Positions 15,883-64,000 are shown, numbered from the stretch's first letter. The stretch is DNA of 64,000 nucleotides from an uncultured Pseudomonadales bacterium (GCA_964618725.1 CAZUBK010000001.1:196908-260907); one strand, 5' to 3'. Notes: a model not told the origin generated them from the sequence alone. A program made the numbers and translations.

Positions 15883-17619
15883 TTATTGTTCTAGGTAATA
15901 AAGATTTTTCCCTATTGATTGTGCCTGGCATACAAGTGGCTCCTCGGCACAAGTTTTGGTTGTGGCGAACCAGAAAGAAGACTGTGGGGTGGGAGCAGAG
16001 GCATACGTACAATTAATGTTAAAGATGGCCATAAATTGCTCATTCGTACTGGCATGCCAAATGCCTTGGTCAAGAATGTAAAGTGTGTGGGGACCGGTAT
16101 CGGCACAGAAGGCAATGATATCTTGATTCTGAGGATGTCTATCTTTGATCCAATCATAAATATTGGTTTTTCCCCTGGCGTAGGCTATCTCCTGGGGCGA
16201 AAGGTAATGCCAGATACTGTAAGTGGTCTTCATGCCTGAAATGAAGTAAAAGAGGGCAAAGAATGAGACAAGAAGGGTATACCAGCTGAGTCTAGTCGCC
16301 GGTAGAACGATTAAGAGAGTAAACAAGATCTGTAAGTAGAAGAAGTAGCGAGGCAAGAAACCTGAATAAAAACGAAGTAGGAATAATTCCAAGGTAATAC
16401 CTACTAAAAGAAAGATTGCAAAGTAGCGTTGTTTTTTGTTACCGAACCTAAATATCAAGCCGACAGAGGCGATCCAAAGGACAGATATGGGCAGTTTGAT
16501 GGTAATTTGATTGATAATGGTAGGGAGACTTCGAAGTGTGACCGGAACAGTCCAGCCGTCAAAGAAGGTTTCTGTGGCGGCACAAAAAGCCAGTTTACAG
16601 GGGAAGAAAAAGGGGTAGACAGGGTTACCGGTGAAGTAAAAGTTGTTTAGATACCAATATCCACCAGAAATAAATAGAATTGCAAATAACAAGATCATGT
16701 TCCTTGCTTTAAACACTTCCAGTAAAATCGCCTGATTCTTTTTGTAAAAGAGAAATCCAAGCGTAATGAGTCCGTAGGTGAGTAGGACAGAGAGTCCGGT
16801 GAATTTCGTTGAGATAGAAAGACCTAAAAAGAAGACAGCGGTTAACAGGATAGAAGACTTCTTGTTTTGATAAAAGTCAAAGAGACTGACAATTCCTAAG
16901 GCAATGAAGGATGCGAGAGAGTAATCAGTATAGCCTGACGCTCCTATGATCAGGAGATCCTTCATCAAGTAAAGATAAATGACAACAAATAGATTGGCTG
17001 ACCAGTGACCAAAGTGATACTTAGTGACTGCATAGATACTGGAGATGCTTGTCAGAAAGATAAGGAAGTGGAGGAGACGAGCCGGCGAGTAAGATCTGGC
17101 TAAAGAAAAAACTAGGGCAAGGAAGGTTTCAATAAATCGGGGAACATAGGTATAGATTTCTGAGTTACTACCAAAGCCCCAGGTGTTCTGATTGAGTAGT
17201 TGGAATGGAGAAATAAAGTGATAACGGACTTCGTCGGTAAGATAAGGGGGGAGAGAACTTTTGACAAACAAGGCAGGGAAAAGAGTAAGTATGGTTAAGG
17301 TAAGAAATGGATTTTTTAGGTAAAAAGAAAAGAGACTTTGATAATCTTTGTTTTTCAGATAGCTTGCTAAGCAGATCAAAGCAGGGAGGGTCAAACTTAA
17401 GGCGACGTATATCGGCTTGAAAGGTAAAAAGAAATGAAGGAGGTACCAAATAAAAACAATAGGAGCCAGACTATATAACCAGTAAACTGGACGATAGAGA
17501 CTACTTGATTTAAAAAGATGCCGATTAATGTAACTTCCAACGATATCTAGAGATAGGAAGATAAGAACGGTGATGAGGAGTAGAAGGGGGGTTAATGGCT
17601 TGAAATAATCAATTAGCAT
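15883..17619 (-). CDS. GT-C fold polytopic membrane glycosyltransferase (PMT/ArnT-like). It has about 11-13 TM helices plus a C-terminal soluble domain.
   Basis: Extremely hydrophobic N-terminal 430 aa, an acidic first-loop motif LTDEVRYHF, and a C-terminal roughly 140 aa hydrophilic domain. It is a tandem paralog of 17609..19504. Confidence 0.65.
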   Translation of the reverse strand: MLIDYFKPLTPLLLLITVLIFLSLDIVGSYINRHLFKSSSLYRPVYWLYSLAPIVFIWYLLHFFLPFKPIYVALSLTLPALICLASYLKNKDYQSLFSFYLKNPFLTLTILTLFPALFVKSSLPPYLTDEVRYHFISPFQLLNQNTWGFGSNSEIYTYVPRFIETFLALVFSLARSYSPARLLHFLIFLTSISSIYAVTKYHFGHWSANLFVVIYLYLMKDLLIIGASGYTDYSLASFIALGIVSLFDFYQNKKSSILLTAVFFLGLSISTKFTGLSVLLTYGLITLGFLFYKKNQAILLEVFKARNMILLFAILFISGGYWYLNNFYFTGNPVYPFFFPCKLAFCAATETFFDGWTVPVTLRSLPTIINQITIKLPISVLWIASVGLIFRFGNKKQRYFAIFLLVGITLELFLLRFYSGFLPRYFFYLQILFTLLIVLPATRLSWYTLLVSFFALFYFISGMKTTYSIWHYLSPQEIAYARGKTNIYDWIKDRHPQNQDIIAFCADTGPHTLYILDQGIWHASTNEQFMAIFNINCTYASAPTPQSSFWFATTKTCAEEPLVCQAQSIGKNLYYLEQ

Positions 17620-19504
17620 TTGAGAGTGATACTTTTTCCCAATCGAAAATGTAAAGACCAGGAATTTCGGTTGGCTGAGAATTGCAGACTATCTTATTGT
17701 TTATGTATCTTAGATTAAGGGCGGAATCGGTTTCGGTTGGATGCCACTTTTCAAGTGGTGTAGTGCGACAGGGATTGAGTGAGACTAGATTGAATTTCTG
17801 CTTATCACTAATGAGTTGCTTGAGAGCCAGTTCTGGATCTCCTATCGTTGTAGGGGTTGGAACAATGGCACACTTATTAAGGAAGGCATTAAAGCGACCT
17901 TCGTAGCGATACCAGGTAATATCAGGATCATAAAAAGTGATGGGAATCTCACCTTTTATCTTTGTTCGGTCACACCAGCGGATTAGGTTAGTAGTTTCAG
18001 GAAAAATAAAGGCAGTCCAATCGTAGACGTTTTCTTTACCTAAGGCATAATTAATCTCGTGGGGATTAAGCATGTCGAAGCTGTAGGTCCGAAAAGTTGA
18101 AAGAGGAACTTGTTTAAGTAAGAAGGCAATCAAAGCAAGGATCAGAAGAAGACGAATTGGCACAATCTTTTGGGAGACAAACTGATTCTTGCCAAGAATA
18201 ATGGAAACAAGCAAAAAACAAAGAGTTTGAAGATAAATAAAGTAGCGGGGGAGATATCCGGAAAGATACTTAATGACAACAAAATCAAAGATAATGGCGA
18301 GAACAATGAACCAGGGAACAAATTTAGATTTACTCTTCAATTGAGTGATGAGAAAAAGACTGGCTCCTAAAGCGACTGCCATAGATTTACTGCCGGAGAG
18401 GATGTAATAAATTATCATGGGAAGAGTTTGTAGGTCGACAGGGTAAGTCCAGCCAGAGCCAAAGTAGCTCTTCATAGCCAAGCAAGTGGAGGCAAAGCGG
18501 AAACAAGGAAGGACAAATGGAAAAATGGGGTTACCAGTGTAAAGAAGATTTTTGAGATACCAAAAGCCTCCTAGAACAATAAAGATAGTGAGCGAAGTAA
18601 AGACCTGTTGTCTCAGTGTAGATATTAGGCGCCGAGTGAATAAAAGATAAAGACCAGTTAGTGAAGCGTAAGTTAAAAAGGGAATGAGCGAGTTATAGCG
18701 AGTCCCCAAGGCCAGAGCCCAGAAGGCAACTGGCAGGCTAAGGTCTACCTTTTTCTTAAGCAAATCGATGGTGGCAAGAATTCCTAAGAAAACGAATGAA
18801 TTAGAACCGATGTCGACGTATCCTGAAGTGGCCTGAGGAAGTAGATCACCAGGGATATAGAAACTCACCAAAATAAAGACTCCGGCGGAAAGTAGGCCGT
18901 AGTTTTTCTTGATCCAAGTATAGGAAAAATACATTGCAGAGAAAAAGATAAAGAAATGAAACAAACGAGCAATTGAATAGGTTTGCGTCAAACTGAACAC
19001 TAGAGAATACATCGTGTCAAGATTTTTGGGAATATTTTCGTAGAAACCGTCGTTTAGAGTGCGAGTCGTCAGATGGTTATAGCCCCAGGGAGAGGTGTAG
19101 TGATAACTGAGCTCATCCCACTGGTAGGAAGGTAACGAGGCCTTAACAAAAATGGCTGGTAAAAGGGGAAGAATAAGGATTAGGGGAACGGCCAGGCCTC
19201 GCAAGGCAGAAGTGACTTGATGCATCTTAAAGCTCCTTGTATGTGGCGGGAGAAAAACAATAGAGAAGCCTAATAATGAGAGTGTGACATTTCTGGTGTT
19301 AGGAACAACAAAGAAGCTGAGCAAAAACCAGAAGAAGATAAAAGTGGTCATGCCAAATATCCAATAGAGCGGACGATAGTTTTTAGGAGACTTCAGGAGT
19401 CGATTGTTAAAGGCAACACCAATAGAATCGAAGAGGACAAACAAAAAAACAAATATTGCTAAATTCTTTAGGTTAAGTGGGGAGTAGAAATCATTGATAC
19501 TCAT
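17609..19504 (-). CDS. GT-C fold polytopic membrane glycosyltransferase (paralog of the previous gene).
   Basis: Same architecture, first-loop motif YQWDELSYHY, and matching conserved blocks (FVKASLP, SGYLPRYF). Confidence 0.65.
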   Translation of the reverse strand: MSINDFYSPLNLKNLAIFVFLFVLFDSIGVAFNNRLLKSPKNYRPLYWIFGMTTFIFFWFLLSFFVVPNTRNVTLSLLGFSIVFLPPHTRSFKMHQVTSALRGLAVPLILILPLLPAIFVKASLPSYQWDELSYHYTSPWGYNHLTTRTLNDGFYENIPKNLDTMYSLVFSLTQTYSIARLFHFFIFFSAMYFSYTWIKKNYGLLSAGVFILVSFYIPGDLLPQATSGYVDIGSNSFVFLGILATIDLLKKKVDLSLPVAFWALALGTRYNSLIPFLTYASLTGLYLLFTRRLISTLRQQVFTSLTIFIVLGGFWYLKNLLYTGNPIFPFVLPCFRFASTCLAMKSYFGSGWTYPVDLQTLPMIIYYILSGSKSMAVALGASLFLITQLKSKSKFVPWFIVLAIIFDFVVIKYLSGYLPRYFIYLQTLCFLLVSIILGKNQFVSQKIVPIRLLLILALIAFLLKQVPLSTFRTYSFDMLNPHEINYALGKENVYDWTAFIFPETTNLIRWCDRTKIKGEIPITFYDPDITWYRYEGRFNAFLNKCAIVPTPTTIGDPELALKQLISDKQKFNLVSLNPCRTTPLEKWHPTETDSALNLRYINNKIVCNSQPTEIPGLYIFDWEKVSLSNAN

Positions 19505-20226
19505 TTTGCTTTGTGAGTGATGATTAAGTGTCCCGGAATAAGGTCGAACATAAGGCTTTGTTGAACTCTAACAGGTTTAATCAATTTGAACCGACTAAAG
19601 TCATAGGAAGAGAGAGGATTCAGATTGTCGATGGAGGCCCAGAAGGGCATCTTAAAGATTAAACAGAGCTTACGAAAAAACTCAAGGGGCAACCAATGCA
19701 AGAAAAGAAAACTAGTATGTGGTTCATAAGGACAAAATCTGTCTGGTGTAGTAACAAAGATATTCTTGCCAACCCGAAGGAGTTCGTTCAGGAAAAACTC
19801 TTGATTCTGGTAATCACCAACATGTTCAAGGGTTGCCCAAGAGACCACAATATCAAAGGTGTCTTTCTTGAAAGGGAGTGGCTTTCCAGGGACCACTTTG
19901 ATAACTTTTATCCTTGGAAAAAGAAGGCACAGCTCCTTTGAGTCTTCGATAGTCACTGCGGTGAGTTTCCTTGGATATGGATAGAGTTTCTCAAATAAAT
20001 TGGAATCACCAAGTAAGGTCAGCGAAGTTGCGCCGACATCTAGAACAAGTGTCTTGGCTGTGGGGTGAAAAAGTTTCTTGAAGTATTTAAATTGCTTGGT
20101 ACGTGTATCAACAGATAACCGACTCAAAAAACGTTTGAGAGGGGTAGCAGTAACAGTGACATCGTGAGTCCAGCGCTTATCTTTTTTCATAAGTGATATA
20201 TTAGCGGCGGGCATAAAGAATGCCAA
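19501..20226 (-). CDS. Class I SAM-dependent methyltransferase.
   Basis: Motif I VLDVGATS and the post-motif DIVVSWATLEHV are present, and the protein is about 241 aa. Confidence 0.6.
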   Translation of the reverse strand: MAFFMPAANISLMKKDKRWTHDVTVTATPLKRFLSRLSVDTRTKQFKYFKKLFHPTAKTLVLDVGATSLTLLGDSNLFEKLYPYPRKLTAVTIEDSKELCLLFPRIKVIKVVPGKPLPFKKDTFDIVVSWATLEHVGDYQNQEFFLNELLRVGKNIFVTTPDRFCPYEPHTSFLFLHWLPLEFFRKLCLIFKMPFWASIDNLNPLSSYDFSRFKLIKPVRVQQSLMFDLIPGHLIITHKAK

Positions 20227-20971
20227 TGCAGGTTTCTAAAGGATGAGGGACAACACGGACTGAGTAGCCTTGACTTCTGAGAAACTTGATCAGTTGATGA
20301 TGATTGTGTTTGGTTAGATGGTCATGATATTCCAGAACGATATTATCTATCTTTTTCAGCAGAGATGGCGGTATTGAAAAAAAGATCTCATACTCAGCAC
20401 CTTCACAGTCTAACTTAAGAAGGTCGCATTTTTTAATGTCATGTTGAATGAAGATGTTATTCAGAGTATCAGTATGAATACTGGTTTTTTTGAAGAAACG
20501 GCCGGTTGGGAAAAGGCTACCCAGGCCGCTGGCCTTGCTAACGAAGAAATTGATTTTTCCTTTGGTGGCGGCAACACCTAAGCAAAAAGCCGTGATGCTT
20601 TTGATGTTGTTTATCTTAGTGTTGTGGGCTAATAATTTGAAAGTTGATGGACATGGTTCATAGGCGAGAATCTTGGTATTGGGATATCTTAGGGCCATGA
20701 GTATAGAGAAAGTGCCGATGTTGGCGCCAACATCAATGATGACTTTTGGATTTTTTAGGGGAATATGATATTGATTCTCGACGTAAATTTCCTGGATAGT
20801 GAGCACGTCAAGTAAATGAGAGACCTTGAACTCTGCGCCGCTTCTTAATTTCATCGTTGGTGAGTTGATCAATTTAAGAGGGAAAAGAGGGACAAGATAC
20901 CAATTGCTAATACTTCTGGCAATGGGGATTATTTGTAAGTGGTATAAAATCAATCGCTTGAGTGGGTGCAT
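20201..20971 (-). CDS. FkbM-family methyltransferase.
   Basis: VIIDVGANIGTFSILMA...LAYEPCPSTFKLL matches the FkbM signature. Confidence 0.75.
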   Translation of the reverse strand: MHPLKRLILYHLQIIPIARSISNWYLVPLFPLKLINSPTMKLRSGAEFKVSHLLDVLTIQEIYVENQYHIPLKNPKVIIDVGANIGTFSILMALRYPNTKILAYEPCPSTFKLLAHNTKINNIKSITAFCLGVAATKGKINFFVSKASGLGSLFPTGRFFKKTSIHTDTLNNIFIQHDIKKCDLLKLDCEGAEYEIFFSIPPSLLKKIDNIVLEYHDHLTKHNHHQLIKFLRSQGYSVRVVPHPLETCIGILYARR

Positions 20972-20972: not shown

Positions 20973-22031
20973 TTAGTCAGGGAGTCGATTTACTAAATGA
21001 GTTTTAATCGTTTCGATTAGAAAGGTCCAGATAAAGATTAAAGTGTTGATACTAATTAAAATCATTTTGGTACCCAGACGAAAATCGGGAAGGATAAGAA
21101 CGGCAATGCCATTGAGAAGAGTAAAGATGATGACAAGAGGAACCAACCAATTATTGTTGAGGATTCTGGATACCGAGTTGTGATGTTTCTCGATGGCAAA
21201 GCCCAGGAACTGAAGGGCCAGCCAACTGAGCCAAAGAGTAATTCCGACTAAGAGAAATAGACTGGTGAGAGCAAAGCTGACTGAGAGAGTTAAAAAGGCC
21301 AGTAGAAAAGCCACAGCCATAGTAATCAAAAGACTTTCAGGTTTAAGAAGGATGATCGCTTTAAGGTGACGCCAACCGTCTGACCATCGTGACAAATGCG
21401 GAGGTCGATTTCTTTTGTCTTTGAGGAAACGGATCGGTACCTCAAGATATTTGCCTTTCCTTAGAGCAGTCTTTAAGAGCAGTTCGCTAGCCCACTCCAT
21501 TCCTGAATTTCTCATATTGAGTTGCTTATAAAAGCTTTTTCTAATAAGACGCATCCCAGAGTTACAATCAGTGGTAGGAATTTGATAAAGGAGGCGGATA
21601 AGTTGGGTAAGAGCAGGAGTTCCGAAATAACGATTAAGGAGAGGCATGGCATCTTTTTGGATCGACCCATTAAGGCGAGAGCCGAGAACCATGTCTGGTT
21701 TGTATTTCAGTTTTGCGGCAAAGCGACTCAAATTTGAAAAGGGATAACTTAAATCGGCGTCAGCAAATAGAACGTAATCACCCCGGCTTTTGAGAATTCC
21801 CCAATGGAGGGCCGCGCCATAACCGCGAACAGGAACGTGAACAATCCGTACAAACTTGATTTCTTTCAGAATTTCTAATGTCCCATCGATGCTGCCATTG
21901 TCGGCAACGATAACCTCGAATTGATTGCCAAAGACTTTCTTTCCGTTTGTATAGGCGTCGGTGACGCTTTGCTTGATTGTATGTGATTCATTCAGACAGG
22001 GAATGACAATGCTTAGTGTCAGCTTCTTCAT
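20973..22031 (-). CDS. GT2 polyprenol-phosphate sugar synthase (ArnC/GtrB/Dpm1-like) with a C-terminal membrane anchor.
   Basis: The GT2 head (LSIVIPCLNESHTI...VADNGSIDGT, ADADLS) is followed by 2-4 TM helices. This is the architecture of lipid-linked sugar donors used by GT-C enzymes. Confidence 0.8.
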   Translation of the reverse strand: MKKLTLSIVIPCLNESHTIKQSVTDAYTNGKKVFGNQFEVIVADNGSIDGTLEILKEIKFVRIVHVPVRGYGAALHWGILKSRGDYVLFADADLSYPFSNLSRFAAKLKYKPDMVLGSRLNGSIQKDAMPLLNRYFGTPALTQLIRLLYQIPTTDCNSGMRLIRKSFYKQLNMRNSGMEWASELLLKTALRKGKYLEVPIRFLKDKRNRPPHLSRWSDGWRHLKAIILLKPESLLITMAVAFLLAFLTLSVSFALTSLFLLVGITLWLSWLALQFLGFAIEKHHNSVSRILNNNWLVPLVIIFTLLNGIAVLILPDFRLGTKMILISINTLIFIWTFLIETIKTHLVNRLPD

Positions 22032-22111: not shown

Positions 22112-22312
22112 ATGAGTGAAGTGAAAATTCAAGTTAATCAAAAAAAGTGTGTTGCTTGTGGGGCCTGTGAAGAATTGGCCCCAGAAGTATTTGTGGTCGG
22201 AGTGACTGTCGAGATCAAAAAAGATGCTGACATTGAAAATGAGGAGATCAAAGAGAAAGTTAGGTTAGCTGCTGAGGTATGTCCACAGAAAGTTATTTCT
22301 TTAAAAGAGTAA
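22112..22312 (+). CDS. Small single-cluster ferredoxin (4Fe-4S or 3Fe-4S).
   Basis: CVACGACEE...CPQ is a Cys-x2-Cys-x2-Cys...Cys-Pro pattern. It is 66 aa and is directly followed by a radical SAM gene (TAA then ATG). Confidence 0.7.
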   Translation: MSEVKIQVNQKKCVACGACEELAPEVFVVGVTVEIKKDADIENEEIKEKVRLAAEVCPQKVISLKE

Positions 22313-23785
22313 ATGAAGAAACCTAGAATAACGCTTGTCTATCCTTCTTATTCCTCTATGATCGGGGCGAGCAAGTTTCGTCGATTTGGTGTTTATGCCG
22401 GAATGGGGAAAATTCCGGAGCGTCCAAATATTGGTCTTGGTTATATTTCTCAAGCATTGATGTCGGCCGGATATGATCACGACTTTGTTGACATGAATCT
22501 CCTTGACTCATACAGCGAATTCAAAAAAAGAACGAAAAAGTATGCTCCTGACATTATTGGTTTGATGATGGTGACGATTGGATATCTGAAAGGATATAAA
22601 TTTATCAGACGAATTCGAAAGGATTTTCCCAAAACGAAGATAATAGTTGGAGGACCACATGTAGGATTGAGGCTGGATGCGCTGCTTAGGGAATGTCCGG
22701 AGATCGATGTGGGATTTATCTCGGAGGCGGAAAAAAGCCTAATCGCGTATCTAAGCAATGGGGCAAGGGCAGATGGAATAGATGGTGTCGTTTATAGGAA
22801 AGGAAGGAAGATTGTATTTACTCCCCCCACACTTGAGCAGGATTTAGGTAAAATAGACTTCCCGAAATATGAAAAGTTTGATCTGTCAAAATATTCAGGC
22901 ATTGGACTTTACACTACTAGGGGGTGTCCATTTCGGTGTATTTTTTGTAGTGTTGAGTCATATCGGAGGAAAATAGTGAGACAAAGGCCGCTTGAGTCGG
23001 TCATGGAAGAAATAAGATACTGGTATGAAAGGGGGCACCGTTTATTTACAATCGAGGATGACAACTTTACTTTCGATATGAAGCGGACGTGGAAACTTTG
23101 TAGACAACTGGAAAAAGAGAAATTGCCAGATATCCAGTTCGCTTTGGCCCAGGGAGCAAGAGCTGATCGAATTAACAAACGTCTGCTCATGAAAATGTAT
23201 CAAGTTGGTTTTAAGTACATCACGATTGCTGTCGAAGCTGGAAATAACAGGATGCTTCGTAACTTAAAAAAAGGTGAAAAGATAGAGACGATTAAGAGGA
23301 ATATAAAGAATGCCTGCGATATTGGCTACGAAGTGAGACTTCTGTTTGTCATTGGCACGCCTGGTGAAACATGGAAGGACATTGAGGATTCACTTAAGTT
23401 AGCGTGTAGTTATCCAATTATGTATTGCCGATTCAACAATCTCTTGCCGATTCCAGGAACAGCACTCTATGATTGGGTGATCAAAGAGAAGCTATATTTA
23501 GCTCCACCAGAAAAGTTTCTTAACAACTATGATCTGGACTGTACCGAGCCATTTTACGAAACAAAAGAGCTTTCGGCGGAGGAGCGGAGACGGGCGATTG
23601 TTATGTCGGACAGAATAAATCAAAAACTGTTTTACCGATATCTAATAAAGAAACTTGGAATTCTAGGTCCAGCTAAATACCCACTCTCTTTTCTGGCATC
23701 TAGAAAGGCAACCCAAACATTGATTGGAGGAAACCCATGGCTATACAACATGGCCCTGAAGATGAGAGTTATGCTGAGCGGGTAG
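22313..23785 (+). CDS. B12-binding domain radical SAM enzyme (class B-like), probably a sugar-tailoring methyltransferase or epimerase.
   Basis: An N-terminal Rossmann-like B12-binding region precedes the CPFRCIFC radical SAM cysteine triad, and the protein is 490 aa. Confidence 0.85.
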   Translation: MKKPRITLVYPSYSSMIGASKFRRFGVYAGMGKIPERPNIGLGYISQALMSAGYDHDFVDMNLLDSYSEFKKRTKKYAPDIIGLMMVTIGYLKGYKFIRRIRKDFPKTKIIVGGPHVGLRLDALLRECPEIDVGFISEAEKSLIAYLSNGARADGIDGVVYRKGRKIVFTPPTLEQDLGKIDFPKYEKFDLSKYSGIGLYTTRGCPFRCIFCSVESYRRKIVRQRPLESVMEEIRYWYERGHRLFTIEDDNFTFDMKRTWKLCRQLEKEKLPDIQFALAQGARADRINKRLLMKMYQVGFKYITIAVEAGNNRMLRNLKKGEKIETIKRNIKNACDIGYEVRLLFVIGTPGETWKDIEDSLKLACSYPIMYCRFNNLLPIPGTALYDWVIKEKLYLAPPEKFLNNYDLDCTEPFYETKELSAEERRRAIVMSDRINQKLFYRYLIKKLGILGPAKYPLSFLASRKATQTLIGGNPWLYNMALKMRVMLSG

Positions 23786-25459: not shown

Positions 25460-25488
25460 AGAACATCTGGTAGATTAGCAGGAAAAAG

Positions 25489-27416: not shown

Positions 27417-27417
27417 A

Positions 27418-29536: not shown

Positions 29537-29544
29537 AGCTACCG

Positions 29545-29574
29545 ATTGTAGCGGACTATTGATGAAATAGACAA
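29545..29574 (-). promoter_or_regulatory. Candidate minus-strand promoter TTGTCT-18-TACAAT for the leftward operon starting with the SDR gene.
   Basis: Hexamers are read on the reverse complement. It lies back to back with the plus-strand promoter. Confidence 0.3.
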
Positions 29575-29589
29575 GGTGTCATATAGTCA

Positions 29590-29618: not shown

Positions 29619-29662
29619 TGTGAAGATAATTATCGGTTTGAACCTTAAAAAAGGAGAGCGTA

Positions 29663-32734: not shown

Positions 32735-32741
32735 GAACTGA

Positions 32742-52913: not shown

Positions 52914-52937
52914 TCATGTTTGCTGTACAATGAATTT

Positions 52938-53225: not shown

Positions 53226-53237
53226 CCAAATAGAACT

Positions 53238-55374: not shown

Positions 55375-55410
55375 GAATCGTCTCCTCAATGGGGACGATT
55401 TTTTTATTTT
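55375..55410 (+). terminator. Rho-independent terminator GAATCGTCTCC-tcaat-GGGGACGATT followed by TTTTTATTTT.
   Basis: A 10-bp stem followed by a T-tract. It overlaps the stop of the convergent GT-C gene. Confidence 0.5.
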
Positions 55411-57092
55411 CTCGCCAGATATTGGTTTGTGTCGAAGAGTCGGAAAGCTGTTTGGTTGTTGGGATAATTGATTATATGGATAGGCTTAATGCTTTCTGGG
55501 ACGGTTTCGTCGGCAACAATAATTAAGGAATTAGGGGATGCAGCGTCACTTGCCCAGTCAATGGGGTGGAATTCGTACTTACCAAAAGAGAGGCCGGTGG
55601 AGAAACCAAACTTATCAGGAGTGGAGAAGACAAGCTGTTGTTGAAGAAGTGTGGGGGGGTACTTGAGATAGAAGGCAGTGAGGATGTAGGGCTGATCGTA
55701 GGCGGTGGAGATAATAACTTTGTCATACTTGTTCTGATTCTTTTTAAGATAGTTACCCAGGTCCTTAAAGCCGTACTGCCAGGCGAAAGGGAGCTCTTTG
55801 GGATAACGATTGTAGTAAGAATTAAGATATTGAGAGAAATTAAAGGCAAGGGTTATGGCAAATAGCGAGATTAACAGAGGAATAACACTGGCGGACTTAT
55901 TCTCAAGCCAAGTAAGGAGCTTAATGATACCAAAAGCAATTGTGATGGAGAAAGAGATGACCATATTTTGAGAACGCAGAGCATGGGGGGACTGAAAGGT
56001 AAGGGCGGCAGCAATAGGAGCAATGAAGAGCCAGGCAAGGACTACCCGAGATGATCTTTGGCGAAAGGAAGTAAGCAGAGAAAATAAACCAAAGTAAAAG
56101 AAGGGGAGAAGGAGATGTAGACCTTGGCCAAAACCAGGGACTTTGGATCGGGCGATTTCATCACCTTTAATAAAGAGGAATTGAGGGGAAAAGTGAGAAA
56201 GATAGTTTTTGATAAATTCAAAGAGATAAGCGGTATAGCGATTGAAGCGAAGCTTAGTCAAAAATGAATCTGGATTTGGAGAAAGGCGTCTACCCTCGTG
56301 GACCCAAGAAAGCGGGCCAGTGTCGGCAAAAAGACCGACTCCAGAAAAGCGACTAGCGGCTGAGCCATTTAAGAACTGAAGAACCAGGGGGATACTTAGG
56401 ACTAATCCTAAAGTGATAGCAATACTAAGGAAGAGAAATTGTTTTTTCTTGAGTTGAGAGAGGATATCCTGATGGAAGATGAGAGTAAATGAAAAAAGTA
56501 AAAGGGGAGTGACCAGACGAGCGGCGTGATAGGTATACAAAGAAAGGAGAAAGAAAAAAGCGCTAGGAATCCAAAGTTGAGGTCGTTTCAGAGCTTTGAG
56601 GAAAAGGACTGTACCAAGAAGAATAAAAGTAGTTCCGGCGTTGACTTCCCACCCACCGCGGGAAAAATGAAGGTGCCAGGGAGAAGCAGCGAGGAGAAGG
56701 GCGGCGAGATATCCGGGAGTTAACTCAAAGTTGTTTTTCTTGAGCAATATTCTTTCCGGGAAGAGGTGGCTGACGAGGAGATAGATTAGATATACAGAGA
56801 GGATACTAAGTAGAGCTGAAGGAAGCCTTACCGACCATTCATTGAGACCAAAGAAATAGACGAAGGGGAGGGTGAGATAAACATAAACGCCGGGCTTGTA
56901 GTCGTCAAAGGAGCGAAACTCGATTGGCCAGGGGGTGCCATGTTCATCACGACCGGTTTGGATGAGGGAATAGGCGTTGTAGCCAAGGGCAGCTTCGTCG
57001 GCATTCAGTCCAGAGGGATAGCGATCAAGGGCAAATAGCCTAAGTGTGGCGGCTAGAAACAGAACCAGAAAGATGGGTATGAGCTTTTTCAT
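55404..57092 (-). CDS. GT-C glycosyltransferase of the PMT/ArnT family.
   Basis: LNADEAALGYNAYSLIQTGRDEHG first-loop motif. It contains a C7 tract (plus-strand G7 at 55653..55659). Confidence 0.75.
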   Translation of the reverse strand: MKKLIPIFLVLFLAATLRLFALDRYPSGLNADEAALGYNAYSLIQTGRDEHGTPWPIEFRSFDDYKPGVYVYLTLPFVYFFGLNEWSVRLPSALLSILSVYLIYLLVSHLFPERILLKKNNFELTPGYLAALLLAASPWHLHFSRGGWEVNAGTTFILLGTVLFLKALKRPQLWIPSAFFFLLSLYTYHAARLVTPLLLFSFTLIFHQDILSQLKKKQFLFLSIAITLGLVLSIPLVLQFLNGSAASRFSGVGLFADTGPLSWVHEGRRLSPNPDSFLTKLRFNRYTAYLFEFIKNYLSHFSPQFLFIKGDEIARSKVPGFGQGLHLLLPFFYFGLFSLLTSFRQRSSRVVLAWLFIAPIAAALTFQSPHALRSQNMVISFSITIAFGIIKLLTWLENKSASVIPLLISLFAITLAFNFSQYLNSYYNRYPKELPFAWQYGFKDLGNYLKKNQNKYDKVIISTAYDQPYILTAFYLKYPPTLLQQQLVFSTPDKFGFSTGLSFGKYEFHPIDWASDAASPNSLIIVADETVPESIKPIHIINYPNNQTAFRLFDTNQYLARK

Positions 57093-58804
57093 TGAAAGGC
57101 AACTATAACAAAGACGGGGAAACCGTCGGGGCGCTTAATTGTTTTGACAATTTGAGCATTTCTGGGAATAAGATCGAGGGTGGTAACTAGAAGACTGTTC
57201 GTGGTACTTATCTCTCCACCACTTTCGAGGGAGAGAGCTTTGACTTCTTTGTCAGTTGGGATCTGCCAATGATTGATGAAATAGGTATCGTCAATTTTGT
57301 CGGTCCAAAACCAATCTGATTTGGCAAAACGAATGTTGTCACTACCTGGCTGAAGATGTGATGGGTCAAGTTTGGAATAGAAGGCATAGAAAATATGGGG
57401 CTCACCAAGTTGTTTGATGATGAAAAAACGTTCGTATTCTTTTTTGTGCTCTTGCATATAGTCAATCGCTTGCTGATAGCCGTATTGCCAAGCCTGGGCA
57501 TAAGTAACTGGATACATAGTGAGATACGAGTGGAGATAACGACCAAATGAGAGGATAGTCAGGGCAGCCAAATAGATTGCGGTAAGGAAGCCAATAGGAA
57601 GCCGAGACTTAACTTTGGACTTTGCCATGTCAATGACCCAAATGGCTCCAAGAGTAGCCAGAAGAATGAGGGGGGGTATCAGAGGAGTGGGACGAAGTGA
57701 CTGAGGAGGGTCGGAGGTAAGGGCAGAGGGAATGGGAGCCAGGAGGAGGAACAGGAGGAGAAGATAAGATTCCTTTGTTTTGTGGCTCTTGAGCAGATAA
57801 ACAAAACCCAGAAGACTAAGAAGCGTAACGGGCAGGGTGAGCAGATTCTTGCCGGGAATGGCAAATTGGTATTGAGCTCCTCTGGTCTGGTACAGGAAAG
57901 TCGGAGAAAAGTGACCTAAATAGTTTTTGGTCGCTTGAGAAGCAAAATAGACCGGGCGATTATGAATCAGTCGAGGAAGGGGGGAGGGGAGTTTGCTGTT
58001 CAGGCGATTTTGACCGATCTGGTAGATAGCCGGCTCAGTAAGAATTGTGAGCTTGTTGTACCGGGCGGTACCAGTACCAGCGATAAACTGATAGCCCATT
58101 AAGCTGAGACTGCCAAGAAAGATTACCATTGAGATCAATAGACTTTTGTTTAGTTTGATTTTGGTTCTATAAAGAAGAAAAAAGGAGGGGAGAAGAAGGG
58201 GAATAAGAACACGATATGAGTTGTAGGTATGGAGAGTAGCGGAGAAAAGAATAGAACTAAGAAGCCAGTATCGGCTGTCATTAAGACCCTTGAGGAGTGA
58301 CCAAAGAGCGAAGACAAACAGAGTGAGGCCCAAGTTGGCTTCAAGGGCGGGGCGGGAGATGAAAAAATGCCAGGGGTTAAGAACAAGAAGGAAAGCGGCA
58401 ACAAGGCCTGGGTTTATTTCATATTCTTTTTTTCTCAAACTGATTTTTAGTCGCTGAGAGAGAAGAACGTTAGCGAGCAAGTAAAGGCCTAAAATGGCAA
58501 AGGAACCAGCTAAGATAGAAACAAAACGAATGGCGAATGAGTTGAGGCCGAAGATGACAATGGGGGGGATGGTGAGATAGATATAGAGTGGAAGCTTGTA
58601 ATCACCGAAGGCGCGAAAGATGAGAGGAAATCTAACCCCCCACTCATCTTTACCGGTTTGAAGAAGTGAGTAGGCGTTGTAACCGTGACTAACTTCGTCC
58701 CAGTTCAATGAAGGAGGGACTTCAGTAACTTGAGAGAAACGGAGCAGCGTCCCTACGATAAGCAGAATAATTAGGGGTAGATTCGTTTTTATGAATTTCG
58801 TCAC
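57089..58804 (-). CDS. GT-C glycosyltransferase of the PMT/ArnT family. The start is set at GTG (complement of about 58802..58804) rather than the track ATG at 58984, which would overlap the upstream gene by 176 nt.
   Basis: LNWDEVSHGYNAYSLLQTGKDEWG motif. It has two C7 tracts (plus-strand G7 at 57671..57677 and 58562..58568). Confidence 0.7.
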   Translation of the reverse strand: MTKFIKTNLPLIILLIVGTLLRFSQVTEVPPSLNWDEVSHGYNAYSLLQTGKDEWGVRFPLIFRAFGDYKLPLYIYLTIPPIVIFGLNSFAIRFVSILAGSFAILGLYLLANVLLSQRLKISLRKKEYEINPGLVAAFLLVLNPWHFFISRPALEANLGLTLFVFALWSLLKGLNDSRYWLLSSILFSATLHTYNSYRVLIPLLLPSFFLLYRTKIKLNKSLLISMVIFLGSLSLMGYQFIAGTGTARYNKLTILTEPAIYQIGQNRLNSKLPSPLPRLIHNRPVYFASQATKNYLGHFSPTFLYQTRGAQYQFAIPGKNLLTLPVTLLSLLGFVYLLKSHKTKESYLLLLFLLLAPIPSALTSDPPQSLRPTPLIPPLILLATLGAIWVIDMAKSKVKSRLPIGFLTAIYLAALTILSFGRYLHSYLTMYPVTYAQAWQYGYQQAIDYMQEHKKEYERFFIIKQLGEPHIFYAFYSKLDPSHLQPGSDNIRFAKSDWFWTDKIDDTYFINHWQIPTDKEVKALSLESGGEISTTNSLLVTTLDLIPRNAQIVKTIKRPDGFPVFVIVAFQ

Positions 58805-58808
58805 AAGA

Positions 58809-60428
58809 TTATTGTAGCTGATCGCAAAGTGGACTTTGGACGATAGAGCTCTGACACTTGAGACGAGGATTGGTTTGAAAGGCCTGAAAGCGAATCTCAC
58901 CCAGGGGATCCTTGATAACAAAGAGGGGACTGAGAGAGTGTTCGATTGTTTGGGAAGGCGAAATAGCGAGTGGACCACCGACAATGACCTGGTTTATGTA
59001 GACGTCGGTTTGCCAATCAATGTTACTAAAAGTTAAATTCCCAAAGGAAAGATTACCGTTAAATTCTGGGTGATAATAATAGTTGTGTTTGATCGAGGGA
59101 TCGGCTTCTTTCTGAAACCGGGCAGGCGGGTAGCGAAGAAAGAAAGCCAGGGCGGGGTAGGTGGGACTGAGTCTACCCTGATCGATGAGGAAGTGTTTTT
59201 TGGGATAGAGTTTGATTTGCTGGGCCAACTGATCGACTCCAAAGTCCCAGTATTTGGCGCGTTCTACCGGTAAGAGAAGGAAGTATGAATTGTAGAGTTG
59301 ACGAAGACTGAAGGAGAAAATGAGGAGTAGAAGAATAGGTGAAACTAGTTTGGGTATTCTTTCCAAAATTTGTTTTAGGCCTAAGGCGAGAATGATGCTT
59401 AAGGGGATAACTAAGGGGAGACTTCGATGACTTGAGAAGGGATCGTGGGTAAGAGCGGCAGGGATTGGCGAGAGAAAAAGAATGAGAAAAAGATATTTGT
59501 AAGGTAACTTAGCGCGATTAGAATAGAGCTGCAGTAACCCAAGAAAGTAGGGAATGAAGAGCCATAAGTAGAAGACGGCGAGACGAGGAATGGAGCGTTG
59601 AGGATCGGGGTCGGGAAGGAAAAACAAGGATTGAGGAGAAAAGTAGTTAAGATATTGAGAAGAGAATTCCCAAAGGAATCCTAAAAGAGTTGAGTTTCCT
59701 AAACTTAAGTTACCTTTTGTAAAAAAGGCAGGGGTAGTAAGAAGGTAGAACTGCGGTAATAGAAGAATAATACTGACAATGAGGCCCGCAAAAAAGTAGC
59801 GACGGGAAGGCTTGGAGAGGAGGATATCTTTGAAGAAAAGGAAATAGGAGACAAGATAAATGGGAACGAGAAAACGCTCCGAGTAGGCAGTGTACATAGA
59901 GAGAATGACGATAATGAGACCAGAGACGATGAAGACGGGACGGTGAAGGGAGATAAATAGGAACAGCCAGCCTAGAGCCAGGATAGCCATCCCAGGATTA
60001 ATTTCGTAGCCGGTCCTGGCGTAGAGGACAACCCAAGGAGACGTGGCAAGGATAAGGGCAGCCAGATTACTGACTTTACGGTTCTTAAACAGCTCTTGAG
60101 TGAGAAGATAAATAATGACGATACTAAGAAGGCCAAAAATGGCGGAAAGTGACCGAACGGCAAAAATAGTCGGGCCAAAGATGGTGACAAATGGAACGGC
60201 TGAATAGGTAAAAAGGGGGGGGCTATAAAAGCCAAAAAAGCGGAAAGTTACGGGAAAGGCCTTGCCCCACTCGTCTAGACCAGTTTTGGAAAGGGAGTAG
60301 GCGGTAAACCCGGGGAGGGCCTCGTCGACATAGAAGCCAGAGGGAATGCTACTCAGTTTGTAGAAGTACAAAACAAAGGCGAGAAGAAGCGTCAGAAAAA
60401 GCAAAAAGTAAGAGAGTGGCTTAGACAT
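58809..60428 (-). CDS. GT-C glycosyltransferase of the PMT/ArnT family.
   Basis: FYVDEALPGFTAYSLSKTGLDEWG motif. It has a C8 tract (plus-strand G8 at 60215..60222). Confidence 0.75.
   Translation of the reverse strand: MSKPLSYFLLFLTLLLAFVLYFYKLSSIPSGFYVDEALPGFTAYSLSKTGLDEWGKAFPVTFRFFGFYSPPLFTYSAVPFVTIFGPTIFAVRSLSAIFGLLSIVIIYLLTQELFKNRKVSNLAALILATSPWVVLYARTGYEINPGMAILALGWLFLFISLHRPVFIVSGLIIVILSMYTAYSERFLVPIYLVSYFLFFKDILLSKPSRRYFFAGLIVSIILLLPQFYLLTTPAFFTKGNLSLGNSTLLGFLWEFSSQYLNYFSPQSLFFLPDPDPQRSIPRLAVFYLWLFIPYFLGLLQLYSNRAKLPYKYLFLILFLSPIPAALTHDPFSSHRSLPLVIPLSIILALGLKQILERIPKLVSPILLLLIFSFSLRQLYNSYFLLLPVERAKYWDFGVDQLAQQIKLYPKKHFLIDQGRLSPTYPALAFFLRYPPARFQKEADPSIKHNYYYHPEFNGNLSFGNLTFSNIDWQTDVYINQVIVGGPLAISPSQTIEHSLSPLFVIKDPLGEIRFQAFQTNPRLKCQSSIVQSPLCDQLQ
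60215..60222. repeat. G8 (coding-strand C8) homopolymer inside GT-C gene 58809..60428; it encodes Pro-Pro.
   Basis: Read directly. Similar 7-mer tracts occur at 55653..55659, 57671..57677 and 58562..58568 in the neighbouring GT-C paralogs. Confidence 0.6.
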
Positions 60429-60834
60429 GTAAGGATTGTAGTCTTTTTAGTATTCTCAAGATACCTAATGAAATGGTGACAATGAAGAAAGGAAGTAGGG
60501 CCAGTGGTGGAGGAGAAGTTGTAGTAAACAAAATAAAGAAGAAAGCGGGGATTAAGTAGGAGAAGAAGATTAAAGGTGTGATAGAAGGAAGACCGAAAAG
60601 GAAAGGGAGTAGAAAGAGGGGATGAAGAAAGGCCTTTTCCTCTATGCCTCCTCGTTCGCGAGGATGGTTTTGAAAAAAGTAGAAATTAGGATCGAGGATT
60701 TCACCCAGATTTGTTTTAATTGTTTCTTTGTAATTGAGAACGAGAGGTCGAGGGAGAGAAACCAAGCTGATGGCAAGTGCCAGACAGGTAAAGAGAAGGC
60801 CTAACTTGTTTGGAGATAAATTAATCTTCTTCAT
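60421..60834 (-). CDS. Small hydrophobic membrane protein of 137 aa, hypothetical.
   Basis: Operonic 8-nt and 14-nt overlaps with the flanking GT-C genes, and a Pro/Leu/Phe-rich TM segment. Confidence 0.4.
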   Translation of the reverse strand: MKKINLSPNKLGLLFTCLALAISLVSLPRPLVLNYKETIKTNLGEILDPNFYFFQNHPRERGGIEEKAFLHPLFLLPFLFGLPSITPLIFFSYLIPAFFFILFTTTSPPPLALLPFFIVTISLGILRILKRLQSLHV

Positions 60835-62026
60835 GGGCCACGGGTAACAGTAGAAGAACTAAGTAGGCGACAAGCCAGGCTCGAGAGAGAGAAACAAGAC
60901 TAAGAATAGCGCTAGTTGAGGGAAGAAAAAAGCCGTTGCTGATGTTTAGTAGGTAGAAGAGACCAAGATTAAGTGAGGTGTCGAAAGAGGCAACAATGAT
61001 AGTCCAGCTTATGAGGGTAAAGATAAGAGGAAGAAAGTTTTTTGTCTTTATAGCAAAATAGATGAACCAGGGGGTGAGCCAGAGAAGCCATTGGGGATGG
61101 AAATGGGTAAAAGTGAGACTACTAAACAAGGCGGCGGCGAGAGCTGGGAAAAGCGAGATTTTTCTGTAGACAACTAAACCGATTACCAGAGTATAGAAGA
61201 TAAAGAACCAGGAGATGTCGTGTCCGGAGGCAACCGAGATACCGGCATAAGTGCTTTTAGTGATCTGGTCGGCGTAAAGAGCGTAGTAGCGATAAATAGG
61301 AGAGAAAATAAAGGGAAGAATACCAAGAAAGTAGGTAACAATGCCAAAAGAAATATTGGTGAGAGCAAAGCGAAGACTCTTCTTTTGGAAGTAGAGATAG
61401 AGAGCTAAGACAGGAAGAACAATAACGGCAGCTGGCTTGACTAGAGCAGATAGAGCGATAAAGACAGCAGCATGATGGAAGTGGCTCTTTTTCAGGGCGA
61501 TGAGGGCGAGAACGAGAAAAAAGGTAATGATGATATCGACTTGACCGATCATTGAGGAGACATAGATAGCGAGCGGATTAAGTGCCCAAACTATTTTGGC
61601 TAGACTCTTGTTTCTCTTGTCATCAAAAAGCTTAGGAATAGTAAAGATGATGGCAATGTCGGCGAGAATAAGCGGGAGCTTGTAGATAAATAAGGGGAGG
61701 TAGGGGGCTGCGTGGTTCCAAGAACCGGAAATGACTTGATCGGAGGCGCCTCTGAGAATGAGAAAGAAAGGAAGATAAACAAATGAGGGGAGAAGATAGG
61801 CGAGAGGTTGATAGTTTAGGATCATCTGATGGGGGAAGAGTCGGGCGATACCGTTGATATATTCGACGCCATAATCATAGAAATTTAGCCAATGTCCATC
61901 GAGAACAATAATCTTACTCGCAAAGGCGAGGATACTGAGATCGGGATGATAGGTAAAAATGGATAATACAAGACGCAGGATAATGCCGAAAACAATGACC
62001 AAAGAGACTAGTGAGATTTTTTTCAT
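60821..62026 (-). CDS. Polytopic membrane glycosyltransferase-like protein (GT-C-like, different subfamily).
   Basis: 401 aa with about 11 TM helices and a first-loop LDGHWLNFYDYG motif. Confidence 0.55.
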   Translation of the reverse strand: MKKISLVSLVIVFGIILRLVLSIFTYHPDLSILAFASKIIVLDGHWLNFYDYGVEYINGIARLFPHQMILNYQPLAYLLPSFVYLPFFLILRGASDQVISGSWNHAAPYLPLFIYKLPLILADIAIIFTIPKLFDDKRNKSLAKIVWALNPLAIYVSSMIGQVDIIITFFLVLALIALKKSHFHHAAVFIALSALVKPAAVIVLPVLALYLYFQKKSLRFALTNISFGIVTYFLGILPFIFSPIYRYYALYADQITKSTYAGISVASGHDISWFFIFYTLVIGLVVYRKISLFPALAAALFSSLTFTHFHPQWLLWLTPWFIYFAIKTKNFLPLIFTLISWTIIVASFDTSLNLGLFYLLNISNGFFLPSTSAILSLVSLSRAWLVAYLVLLLLPVAHEED

Positions 62027-62887: not shown

Positions 62888-63775
62888 TCAAGTTGAAGTG
62901 CCTTGTGAGAGTAGAGACAATATTTGACGATCAGTCAGTTTAGCTTGGTGACGATTATGGATTCTTTCTTTGGCGACTTGAGGATAGAAACGCATGGCTG
63001 CGAGAATAACTTTGATATAGCCTGGGTGTTTGATAGTATGGCTAACAAGAAACTTGAAGTGTGATACCGCCAGATCCCGATCGGTTAGATTCTGCCAATG
63101 AAAGAGTAACTCATTTCTTTGTTTGAGAAGGCTAACAAAGTTCTTGTTAAGTTTCTTGAAAGTAGATTCGTGTTGATGATCAACCAAGGACTGTGGATCC
63201 CAGATGATCTGGTAACCCTGTTTTAGCGCCCGCCAACCAAGATCAATATCTTCAAAGTAGCCAGGGGAGTATATTTCGTTGTATCCACCCAATTTGTCCC
63301 AAATCTTTTTTTTGAGAATGCAACTTCCTCCGGAGGCCCATGCAATTGAGCGCGCTTTAGAGCGGTCGTTACCTTCTATGAACTGAACTTTGCCGTTGTG
63401 CCAGCTTACCTTAGGCCAACTGTGTTGTTTTTCGGCAAAGGTAACGGCAAAGACCTTAGGATCATTCAGGCGCTTCAAGGCGGAGTCAAGATATCCCTTC
63501 TCTGGAGAGACGTCGTTATTGAGCAGGACGACTAGATCAGTGCTGGTATGAGCTACGGCCTGGTTTGTGTTTTTGGGGAAACCAAGATTCTTTAGGTTTC
63601 TTTGAAAAACTATTTTTGGGTACTTACGCGCCATGAACTCGGGGGTGTCGTCAGTGCCGGCATCGTCATAGACATAGATCTTGTCCACCATAGGCGAGTT
63701 CTTAATGACACTAGGCAGATGCTTCTCTAAGAGATGGCGGCCGTTGAAAGAGGTGATAACAATGGAGTAGTTCAT
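62888..63775 (-). CDS. GT2-family glycosyltransferase.
   Basis: YSIVITSFNGRHLL...YVYDDAGTDDT and LLNNDVSPE. Confidence 0.8.
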   Translation of the reverse strand: MNYSIVITSFNGRHLLEKHLPSVIKNSPMVDKIYVYDDAGTDDTPEFMARKYPKIVFQRNLKNLGFPKNTNQAVAHTSTDLVVLLNNDVSPEKGYLDSALKRLNDPKVFAVTFAEKQHSWPKVSWHNGKVQFIEGNDRSKARSIAWASGGSCILKKKIWDKLGGYNEIYSPGYFEDIDLGWRALKQGYQIIWDPQSLVDHQHESTFKKLNKNFVSLLKQRNELLFHWQNLTDRDLAVSHFKFLVSHTIKHPGYIKVILAAMRFYPQVAKERIHNRHQAKLTDRQILSLLSQGTST

Positions 63776-64000
63776 AAACGTTTTTTGATCCCGAGATAGA
63801 AACTAAATATACTTGTGACTACTAAGGAGATCGATGAGATAAGTAAACCACGGCGGAAAGACAAAGGCGAGTAATGGAATACTACGTTGTGTTCACCTGG
63901 TGGGACGATAATAGATCTCAAGGCACCATTGGCCTGATAGATTTTGGTTTCCTGGTCATCGATGTAGGCCTGCCAGTCGGTGACGTAGGTATCAGCTAGG
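63772..64000 (-). CDS. C-terminal fragment of a membrane protein (YfhO/GT-C-like tail). The gene begins beyond the right edge of the window.
   Basis: My hand translation gives an open minus-strand frame to the window end, ...YQANGALRSIIVPPGEHNVVFHYSPLSFRRGLLISSISLVVTSIFSFYLGIKKRL, followed by a stop. There is an ATGA overlap with the GT2 start at 63775. Confidence 0.4.
   Translation of the reverse strand, partial: LADTYVTDWQAYIDDQETKIYQANGALRSIIVPPGEHNVVFHYSPLSFRRGLLISSISLVVTSIFSFYLGIKKRL

Follow-up and report, generated by a model that had tools for sequence, protein, structure and literature searches.

The 64,000-nucleotide (nt) stretch of DNA analysed here, referred to as the window (CAZUBK010000001.1:196908-260907, from assembly GCA_964618725.1, labelled as an uncultured Pseudomonadales bacterium), carries a dense array of genes for polytopic membrane glycosyltransferases of the GT-C type. 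The array lies in the interval 15883-64000 (48.1 kb), with positions counted from the window start, and genes are named below by their first coordinate. The window has about 41% G+C and contains 58 open reading frames (ORFs) of at least 150 aa; glycosyltransferases account for 26 of about 62 locus genes, and 14 of these are GT-C genes. The ORF listing and hydropathy analysis revealed 13 complete polytopic ORFs from 15883 to 62026 (378-631 aa, 7-11 or more predicted transmembrane (TM) segments) and one partial gene, exactly the number counted in a first-pass annotation of this sequence. Together the complete genes occupy 20.2 kb, or 42% of the interval. Nothing relevant came from a tRNA scan or a tandem-repeat scan of the window.

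Pfam calls were judged by the curated thresholds, and the cut-off of a family is quoted beside the bit score. Eight of the 13 complete ORFs match a GT-C family above threshold: six match PMT_2 (46767, 50698, 53567, 55404, 57089 and 58809, the last also matching PMT), 48533 matches PIG-V (Mannosyl_trans2) and 60821 matches GT87. The placement of 48533 in PF04188 and of 60821 in PF09594 is tentative, as both are marginal, partial-length matches. An acidic first-loop motif is found in all 13 complete ORFs. It has the form DE in 15883, 17609, 40966, 46767, 55404, 57089 and 58809, PD in 37245, 38816 and 60821, HD in 50698, EE in 53567, and a PIG-V-type D in 48533. The motif reading thus agrees with the first-pass annotation, which had described DE motifs in several genes and PD, HD or EE variants in others, except in the spacer: the shared motif is D-E-x3-G-[YF]-[NT]-A-Y-S-L, with x3 in place of the x5 proposed. 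The acidic residues are constant within families (D129 in family A, near-invariant D44/P45 in family B, D32/E33 in the PMT_2 group). In the PMT_2 group none of the 223 sequences covering the D-E pair departs from it, and D49, PW138-139, R145 and R373 are invariant as well, so all paralogs look like active enzymes.

Four ORFs (15883, 17609, 37245 and 38816) have no family match in Pfam or NCBIfam and no relative in the PDB by single-sequence search. They form two paralog pairs, 15883/17609 (family A, 32% identity) and 37245/38816 (family B, 30% identity). A GT-C fold was predicted for one member of each pair, and 17609 and 38816 are taken as GT-C because of their identity to 15883 and 37245. 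In the AlphaFold models of 15883 and 37245 a bundle of helices is joined by an alpha/beta domain at the C-terminus, and the fold search found three-dimensional similarity to solved GT-C enzymes for both, with matches that include AftA, AftB, AftD, PimE and EmbA at about 8-15% sequence identity. For 37245 the Foldseek matches were ALG12 (1.4e-6), DPY19, ArnT, ALG9, STT3, Pmt4, PglB and AftB. Family A is small: a word-indexed search of 5.8 billion proteins with 15883 returned only 17 relatives, the most distant of which carry PMT domains, and SLPPY-x-TDE-xx-YH is invariant in their alignment. Family B is larger, with 1101 relatives of 37245 at E<=1e-3 in an exhaustive hidden Markov model (HMM) search of 1.84 billion representatives, and its near-invariant motif is (E/D)PD..Y..NA ... 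Y-x-DHP(A/G)TP.

Membership of two well-known GT-C families was also considered. Only 58809 reaches the PMT (GT39) model, at 24.5 vs 22.7 bits, and no MIR or PMT_4TMC domain was matched in any of the 13 ORFs by Pfam. Similarity to ArnT (GT83) is at the profile level only (E 0.01 to 5ezm), and there are no Arn genes. In the PDB profile searches, alignment A5 matched ArnT alone and alignment A6 gave no match.

Several genes of the array need separate mention. The closest named homologue of 40966 is from Candidatus (Ca.) Gottesmanbacteria; three of its nine homologues match PMT_2 (best 1.2e-7), and hhalign comparisons with the PMT_2 paralogs (A5) were weak whether the single sequence or its family was used. 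Orthologues of 53567 at 61-62% identity occur in the related loci L008 and L010, and no counterpart of 50698 was found by tblastn in 87 related loci. The ORF 57089-58984 has a TTG start, overlaps 58809-60428 by 176 nt and bears a 64-aa N-terminal extension absent from its paralogs; its start, called as the longest ORF, is probably too far upstream. Between 58809 and 60821, on the minus strand, lies a 137-aa ORF (60421-60834) with about five TM segments and no Pfam match. Its residues 39-66 have 68-76% identity to the DNA of loci L038 and L077, in the latter inside the PMT_2 paralog array, and it is probably, from this similarity, the remnant of a further GT-C paralog.

To place the array among its relatives, we scanned metagenomes with four PMT_2 paralogs as queries; the scan detected at least 445 relatives, and 80 loci were retrieved, several of them from groundwater studies, including 0.1-µm filter fractions. 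Density and synteny were studied in the 19 related loci of at least 20 kb, in which GT-C genes were counted with HMMs of the window's GT-C families. Each holds 5-8 GT-C genes (median 7 per ~21.6 kb), and the matching frame of the window holds eight plus the YfhO fragment. A common cassette, conserved in order and co-directional in 15-16 of the 19 loci, runs from a 57089-type gene through a further PMT_2 paralog, a 55404-type gene, a 52023-type GT2, a GT4 and a PIG-V-like GT-C to a 46014-type synthase GT2. Its most constant member is the 52023-type GT2 (19/19), followed by the GT4 and the PIG-V-like gene (16/19 each; orthologues of 48533 have 37-43% identity) and the 46014-type gene (15/19). 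A GT87-like gene often lies upstream, with a homologue of 60821 in 9 of the 19. The window keeps the cassette order on its minus strand, interrupted by the plus-strand GT-C 53567, a MNT/HepT pair, the extra GT-C 50698 and the plus-strand GT-C 46767.

Single-linkage clustering at 42% identity gave orthogroups of 77, 40, 35, 21, 11 and 9 members. The two that include a window paralog (77 members with 55404, 40 with 57089) have exactly one member per locus, and the window has no members of the 35- and 21-member groups. The window's paralogs are mutually 23-32% identical, and their orthologues in other loci are 50-57% (55404, 57089) or 43-50% (the others) identical, and on this comparison recent tandem duplication was rejected. 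The low identity among paralogs and the one-per-locus orthogroups indicate that the array is an ancient, conserved set of paralogs in which genes were gained and lost in particular lineages, and that its densest part is an old cassette common to many related uncultured bacteria. The first-pass annotation had seen a massive expansion well beyond typical loci. This holds against classical O-antigen or PMT loci and does not hold for the lineage, given the density of the related loci, a comparison that is biased because these loci were chosen for containing a homologue. What is peculiar to this genome is the addition of several GT-C modules side by side. The core array is found again, its catalytic motifs intact, in many independent contigs, some of which come from groundwater studies, and this recurrence indicates an extracytoplasmic glycan pathway under strong selection.

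The family-A genes belong to another conserved module. A locus from Ca. Amesbacteria is syntenic with the window over about 11 genes at 41-59% identity, in the order family-B GT-C, methyltransferase-GT2, synthase GT2, FkbM methyltransferase, GT2, methyltransferase, three family-A GT-C, acetyltransferase, Wzm and Wzt. Wzm/Wzt directly follow the family-A genes in L001, L002 and L004, and a further contig set carries a B12-binding radical-SAM gene, ferredoxin, synthase GT2, methyltransferase and two family-A GT-C.

The enzymes that could supply lipid-linked donors were analysed in the same way. Ten Pfam GT2 ORFs are present in the window, nine of them inside the interval, one fewer than the 11 first reported; the two GT4 genes (10843 and 49650) were confirmed by Pfam. 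The genes 20973 and 45358 had been called polyprenol-phosphate sugar synthases, a call that their NCBIfam and PDB relatives uphold at the family level, and 46014 and 35281 are further synthase-like GT2 genes. Across the four, the best NCBIfam matches are PpgS, AglJ, dolichyl-phosphate hexose transferase, PgfS and ArnC. For 20973 they are AglJ, dolichyl-P hexose transferase and PpgS, and the best PDB relative is the Pyrococcus furiosus dolichyl-phosphate mannose (Dol-P-Man) synthase 5mlz, followed by ArnC; 45358 matches ArnC and 5mlz best, and the orthologue of 35281 in the Amesbacteria locus is 57% identical. The products of 45358 and 45029 reproduce the GacI/GacJ (PpgS/Rv3632) pair arrangement, which is kept in L012, L077, L065 and L025. 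In Streptococcus pyogenes and Mycobacterium tuberculosis, respectively, the DUF2304 proteins GacJ and Rv3632 stimulate the synthases GacI and PpgS (bioRxiv 10.1101/180810). The ~21.6-kb related loci usually have one or two detected synthase-like GT2 genes beside their 5-8 GT-C genes.

Table. Features of the window, with position, strand and supporting evidence
Feature	Position	Strand	Evidence
GT-C family A, C-terminal Cys-rich soluble domain	15883-17619	-	Predicted GT-C fold; motif SLPPY-x-TDE-xx-YH
GT-C family A paralog	17609-19504	-	DE motif SLPSYQWDE; 32% identity to 15883, E 3.6e-70; D129 invariant in alignment A1
GT-C family B	37245-38819	-	AlphaFold scores pLDDT 93.9, pTM 0.93; Foldseek GT-C matches
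GT-C family B paralog	38816-40357	-	30% identity to 37245, E 5.6e-81; same invariant motif residues
Probable GT-C, PMT_2-like, WADE motif	40966-42276	-	PMT_2 24.2 vs 26.1 bits, just sub-threshold
GT-C, PMT_2 group, DE-x3-GYQVRSL	46767-48548	+	PMT_2 36 bits; 25-29% identity to 55404 and 57089
GT-C, PIG-V/GT76-like, cassette member	48533-49669	-	Mannosyl_trans2 26.7 vs 22.4 bits
GT-C, PMT_2, HD motif	50698-52026	-	PMT_2 40.1 bits
GT-C, PMT_2, EE motif	53567-55048	+	PMT_2 47.2 bits
GT-C, PMT_2 group, motif DEAALGYNAYSL, cassette anchor	55404-57092	-	PMT_2 34.1 bits; orthogroup n=77
GT-C, PMT_2 group, motif DEVSHGYNAYSL	57089-58984	-	PMT_2 26.5 vs 26.1 bits; orthogroup n=40
GT-C, PMT_2/PMT, motif DEALPGFTAYSL	58809-60428	-	PMT_2 41.4 bits, PMT 24.5 bits
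GT-C, GT87 (PimE-type)-like	60821-62026	-	GT87 26.8 vs 25 bits
YfhO-family GT-C, C-terminal 75 aa, cut by window end	63775-64000	-	PF09586 38.9 vs 28.5 bits, profile 785-835 of 835
GT2, polyprenyl-phosphate-sugar synthase-like (DPMS/GtrB type)	20973-22031	-	GT2 100.8 bits; 3 TM segments after residue 233
Methyltransferase-GT2 fusion, AglJ/DPMS-like	35281-36525	+	Pfam; NCBIfam AglJ 97.9 bits
Soluble PpgS-like GT2 of GacI/GacJ-type pair	45358-46017	-	PpgS 77.4 bits, full length
DUF2304 protein, 115 aa, 3 TM, overlaps 45358	45029-45376	-	DUF2304 65.4 bits
PpgS/DPMS-like GT2, conserved cassette end	46014-46727	-	PpgS 68.5 bits; 5mlz 2.3e-13 over full length
GT2, most conserved cassette gene	52023-52913	-	Pfam; 43-68% identity, in 19/19 related loci
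GT4 (cytoplasmic GT-B), cassette member	49650-50711	-	Pfam; in 16/19 related loci
GT2	43305-44093	-	Pfam
Wzt (ABC ATPase with Wzt_C)	2216-3505	-	PF00005 81.7 bits, PF14524 36.3 bits
Wzm (ABC-2 permease)	3502-4320	-	PF01061 80.8 bits
Two methyltransferases (one FkbM-type) between synthase GT2 and family-A GT-C	19501-20971	-	Pfam; syntenic in L001, L004
Nucleotide-sugar genes: UDP-sugar dehydrogenase, Gfo/Idh/MocA oxidoreductase, epimerases, short-chain dehydrogenase/reductase, GDP-heptose-type set	24707-35254		Pfam
Further methyltransferases	36512-37258 and 40320-40985		Pfam
Epimerase/reductase	42252-43187	-	Pfam
GDP-mannose 4,6-dehydratase	44068-45048	-	Pfam

The Wzm/Wzt exporter named in the first-pass annotation is real, with an ABC-2 permease and an ATPase that has the Wzt_C carbohydrate-binding domain, and lies outside the 48.1-kb interval stated there. 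Beside it, the region 757-9396 has NeuB (270 bits) and a CMP-sugar synthetase-like cytidylyltransferase, so the exported polymer could contain, or be capped with, a nonulosonic acid; a 358-aa ORF at 4326-5402 has a weak polysialyltransferase-like match (E 0.004). The nucleotide-sugar genes include a WbpA/WbpB-like pair and, at 30411-35254, a complete-looking GDP-glycero-manno-heptose-type set (SIS isomerase, GHMP kinase, HAD phosphatase and nucleotidyltransferase) with a transaldolase that could supply sedoheptulose-7-phosphate. Five methyltransferases and an acetyltransferase are present in the locus. A B12-binding radical-SAM enzyme is encoded at 22112-23785 on the plus strand with a small 4Fe-4S ferredoxin; both are conserved beside the synthase GT2/family-A module (L006/L007 4560-6237), and a weaker homologue of the enzyme (~24-26% identity) flanks the PMT_2 cassette in 5 of the 19 related loci. 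Its role in the glycan pathway may be C-methylation.

The pair that interrupts the cassette (52920-53570, plus strand) consists of a MNT-type nucleotidyltransferase (PF01909/PF18765, 52.8 bits) followed by a HepT RNase (PF01934, 91.6 bits), that is, a toxin-antitoxin pair adjoining the plus-strand GT-C 53567. The ORF 25489-26562 overlaps 26430-27416 by 133 nt and its Pfam domain begins only at residue 47, and its longest-ORF start is probably too far upstream. No significant Pfam or NCBIfam family was found for 9485-10813 (plus strand, 442 aa) or for 24707-25459 (minus strand, 250 aa), the latter with a weak DUF218 match (E 0.006). Small ORFs in the gaps were also scanned with Pfam, and the membrane candidates among them are the DUF2304 protein and 60421-60834.

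Named relatives of the window come from Ca. Amesbacteria, Ca. Yanofskybacteria, Ca. Gottesmanbacteria and one metagenome-assembled genome labelled Gammaproteobacteria. Because of these relatives and the syntenic Amesbacteria locus, the window is probably from an ultra-small, Microgenomates-like groundwater bacterium of the Candidate Phyla Radiation (CPR). Locus L002 (CAZETR010000011, labelled uncultured Gammaproteobacteria) carries three family-A GT-C, an acetyltransferase and Wzm/Wzt, as CPR genomes do, and this CPR-like module suggests mis-binning or horizontal transfer. A large part of bacterial diversity belongs to the CPR, whose members have very small genomes, are nearly all uncultured and have surfaces that are little characterised. 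A monoderm CPR host is expected to be without lipid A.

These data lead us to favour, as reasonably likely, the view that the window is a cell-surface glycan super-locus in which a GT-C assembly line builds a lipoglycan or wall polysaccharide outside the membrane. GT-C enzymes use polyprenyl-phosphate-linked donors at the non-cytoplasmic face of the membrane (PMC8035078, PMC11127046), and we infer by analogy that a polyprenyl-phosphate-linked sugar is the donor here, where the locus context includes four DPMS/ArnC/PpgS-like GT2 genes. On the inner side of the membrane, the GT2 synthases of such a pathway would transfer single sugars from nucleotide sugars to polyprenyl phosphate, a step in which the 45358 synthase would be assisted by its DUF2304 partner 45029. 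The lipid-linked sugars would then be flipped across the membrane, and the GT-C enzymes, through their first-loop Asp/Glu, would pass them to acceptors on the outer face. Together the GT-C set would extend and branch a complex extracytoplasmic glycan, as PimE/Mpt/Aft/Emb build lipomannan (LM)/lipoarabinomannan (LAM) and arabinogalactan. For the family-A pair a different role is more probable: because it adjoins Wzm/Wzt in the relatives, it may decorate or extend the ABC-exported polymer, as GacL does in the streptococcal group A carbohydrate.

The proposal in the first-pass annotation of a lipid-linked, outer-face glycosylation factory fits the context of synthase-like GT2 genes, GacI/GacJ-type pair, Wzm/Wzt and nucleotide-sugar enzymes. 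Its corollary that different paralogs add different sugars is unlikely as stated, with about four candidate synthases for 14 GT-C genes. The small number of synthases, here and in the relatives, and the conserved co-directional cassette, in which a single GT2, a single GT4 and a single synthase occur, imply that it is most likely the acceptor or the linkage, more than the sugar, that mainly distinguishes the paralogs.

A number of observations weigh against the assembly-line proposal. The probable CPR assignment is based on the nearest named homologues rather than on marker genes, and the bias in the choice of comparison loci applies to the density argument. The four synthase-like GT2 proteins score far below the NCBIfam equivalog cut-offs, so their sugars cannot be named. 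No solved structure was close in sequence to the array proteins, the best being ArnT at the profile level, and 40966, a probable GT-C, is the weakest-supported member, with sub-threshold matches only. Among the 58 ORFs and the scanned small gap ORFs, Pfam revealed no flippase of the GtrA, GtcA, ArnE/F or Wzx type. The window likewise yielded no priming phosphoglycosyl transferase of the WecA or WbaP type and no attachment enzyme of the LCP or O-antigen-ligase type, so that the first and last steps of the pathway are either absent or encoded outside the window.

Other explanations account for part of the evidence. The GT-C paralogs might be mainly protein O-glycosyltransferases, PMT/TMEM260-like or similar to the streptococcal PgfM/GT-C proteins, acting on Ser/Thr-rich regions of S-layer proteins, pilins or other surface proteins, with one substrate protein per paralog. 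We consider this a live but unlikely alternative, since no MIR or PMT_4TMC domain was detected and the PMT model is touched only by 58809, at threshold. Moreover, the fold-search scores of enzymes with lipid or glycan acceptors (ArnT, ALG12, ALG9 and the Aft enzymes) are as good or better, the PIG-V-like, GT87-like and GT4 genes of the cassette have characterised relatives that act on glycolipids, and no candidate acceptor protein is encoded in the window. Decoration alone, in which each GT-C adds a different side-branch sugar to a polymer built in the cytoplasm and exported by Wzm/Wzt, would follow the logic of GtrA/B/C, GacI/J/K/L or CsbB/GtcA/YfhO, and the many paralogs would then be a sign of serotype-like diversification at the surface. 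The exporter with Wzt_C and its position beside family-A genes in the relatives favour this explanation, as do the GacI/GacJ-type pair and the YfhO fragment, and 50698 and the YfhO gene are without counterpart in the relatives, as expected of accessory decorating genes. Nonetheless, in the 19 long loci the PMT_2 cassette comes with a GT2, a GT4 and a synthase of its own, and the 10 kb around it showed no homologue of Wzm/Wzt. Stable one-per-locus orthogroups point to a core pathway and not to variable decoration, and side-chain decoration by 5-8 enzymes that share one or two donors would have no precedent. For the array as a whole we therefore judge decoration alone improbable.

It is also conceivable that the cluster is not what it seems, and consists of transporters, flippases or inactive pseudo-enzymes, or lies on a mis-assembled or chimeric contig. 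The four proteins without a Pfam match, and 40966 and 57089 at or below threshold, leave some room for this. We checked whether the TM proteins fall into transporter or flippase families or lack the acidic loop residues; none of the 13 complete ORFs does either, and a transporter or flippase identity was rejected on fold. This explanation is largely refuted and has a very small probability.

The GT-C superfamily and the type of mechanism are already known. CPR genomes have been described as rich in glycosyltransferases and as having elaborate surfaces (PMC5220378, PMC8080830), and a PIM-like pathway with a GT87 enzyme was speculated for a saccharibacterium (PMC6031116). In the open-access literature searched, we found no description of GT-C/PMT/GT39 arrays in CPR/Patescibacteria, of a conserved multi-GT-C cassette or of families A and B. 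A bolder and doubtful proposal is that the cassette (3-6 PMT_2-type, GT87-like and PIG-V-like GT-C, GT2, GT4 and a Dol-P-Man-synthase-like GT2) represents an undescribed core envelope pathway of Microgenomates-type CPR bacteria, organised as a mycobacterium-like assembly line that would make a lipoglycan or wall glycan outside the membrane, with families A and B as new linkage-specific enzymes. If so, the cassette glycan could be the main surface structure for attachment in CPR bacteria, which have genomes of ~1 Mb and depend on host cells. The locus offers concrete targets for biochemical work in heterologous hosts and for surveys of cultured CPR strains, namely the unmodelled families A and B, the GacI/J-like pair for donor synthesis and the cassette as now defined. 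If this is only a surface-glycan locus typical of its lineage, the result is a useful improvement of annotation and not a discovery.

The window was compared with four groups of known systems. Relative to ArnT (GT83) and PMT (GT39), it has no ArnA-F context, no MIR/PMT_4TMC, other C-terminal domains and two families without a Pfam model. With ABC-dependent O-antigen and S-layer glycan (slg) clusters it shares Wzm/Wzt with Wzt_C, GT2/GT4 enzymes, GDP-heptose-type and GDP-6-deoxyhexose genes, and possible chain-capping methyltransferases; those clusters normally have 0-1 GT-C plus a priming transferase and a ligase, neither of which was found in the window. The three-component systems (GtrA/B/C, GacI/J/K/L, CsbB/GtcA/YfhO) use the same logic, in which a GT2 makes an undecaprenyl-phosphate sugar and a GT-C transfers it outside, and the likeness extends to the GacI/GacJ-type pair, the YfhO-family gene and the ABC exporter genes. 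Of the Gtr-type components, a GT2 synthase (at the family level) and GT-C enzymes are present and a small flippase is not; no GtrA/GtcA/Wzx flippase was detected, there are 14 GT-C here against one per system, and the PMT_2 cassette of the relatives does not lie beside an ABC exporter.

The closest parallel is the mycobacterial and corynebacterial assembly of phosphatidylinositol mannosides (PIM), LM/LAM and arabinogalactan (PimE of GT87, MptA/B/C, AftA-D, EmbA-C, Ppm1, PpgS/Rv3632 and the GT4 enzymes PimA/B), where many GT-C enzymes likewise share few polyprenyl-phosphate-sugar donors. A GT87-like member adds to the likeness, as do cytoplasmic GT4/GT2 priming steps, a PpgS-like GT2 partnered by a DUF2304 protein, and the mycobacterial enzymes among the fold matches. 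There are differences: sequence identity to the solved GT-C structures found by fold is ~8-15%, the genes are packed in one locus or cassette here and scattered in mycobacteria, no Emb-type C-terminal carbohydrate-binding modules were detected here, and the host is presumably a monoderm, tiny-genome CPR bacterium. Even so, the composition of the cassette parallels the mycobacterial logic, and this favours an extracytoplasmic assembly line as the probable function of the array.

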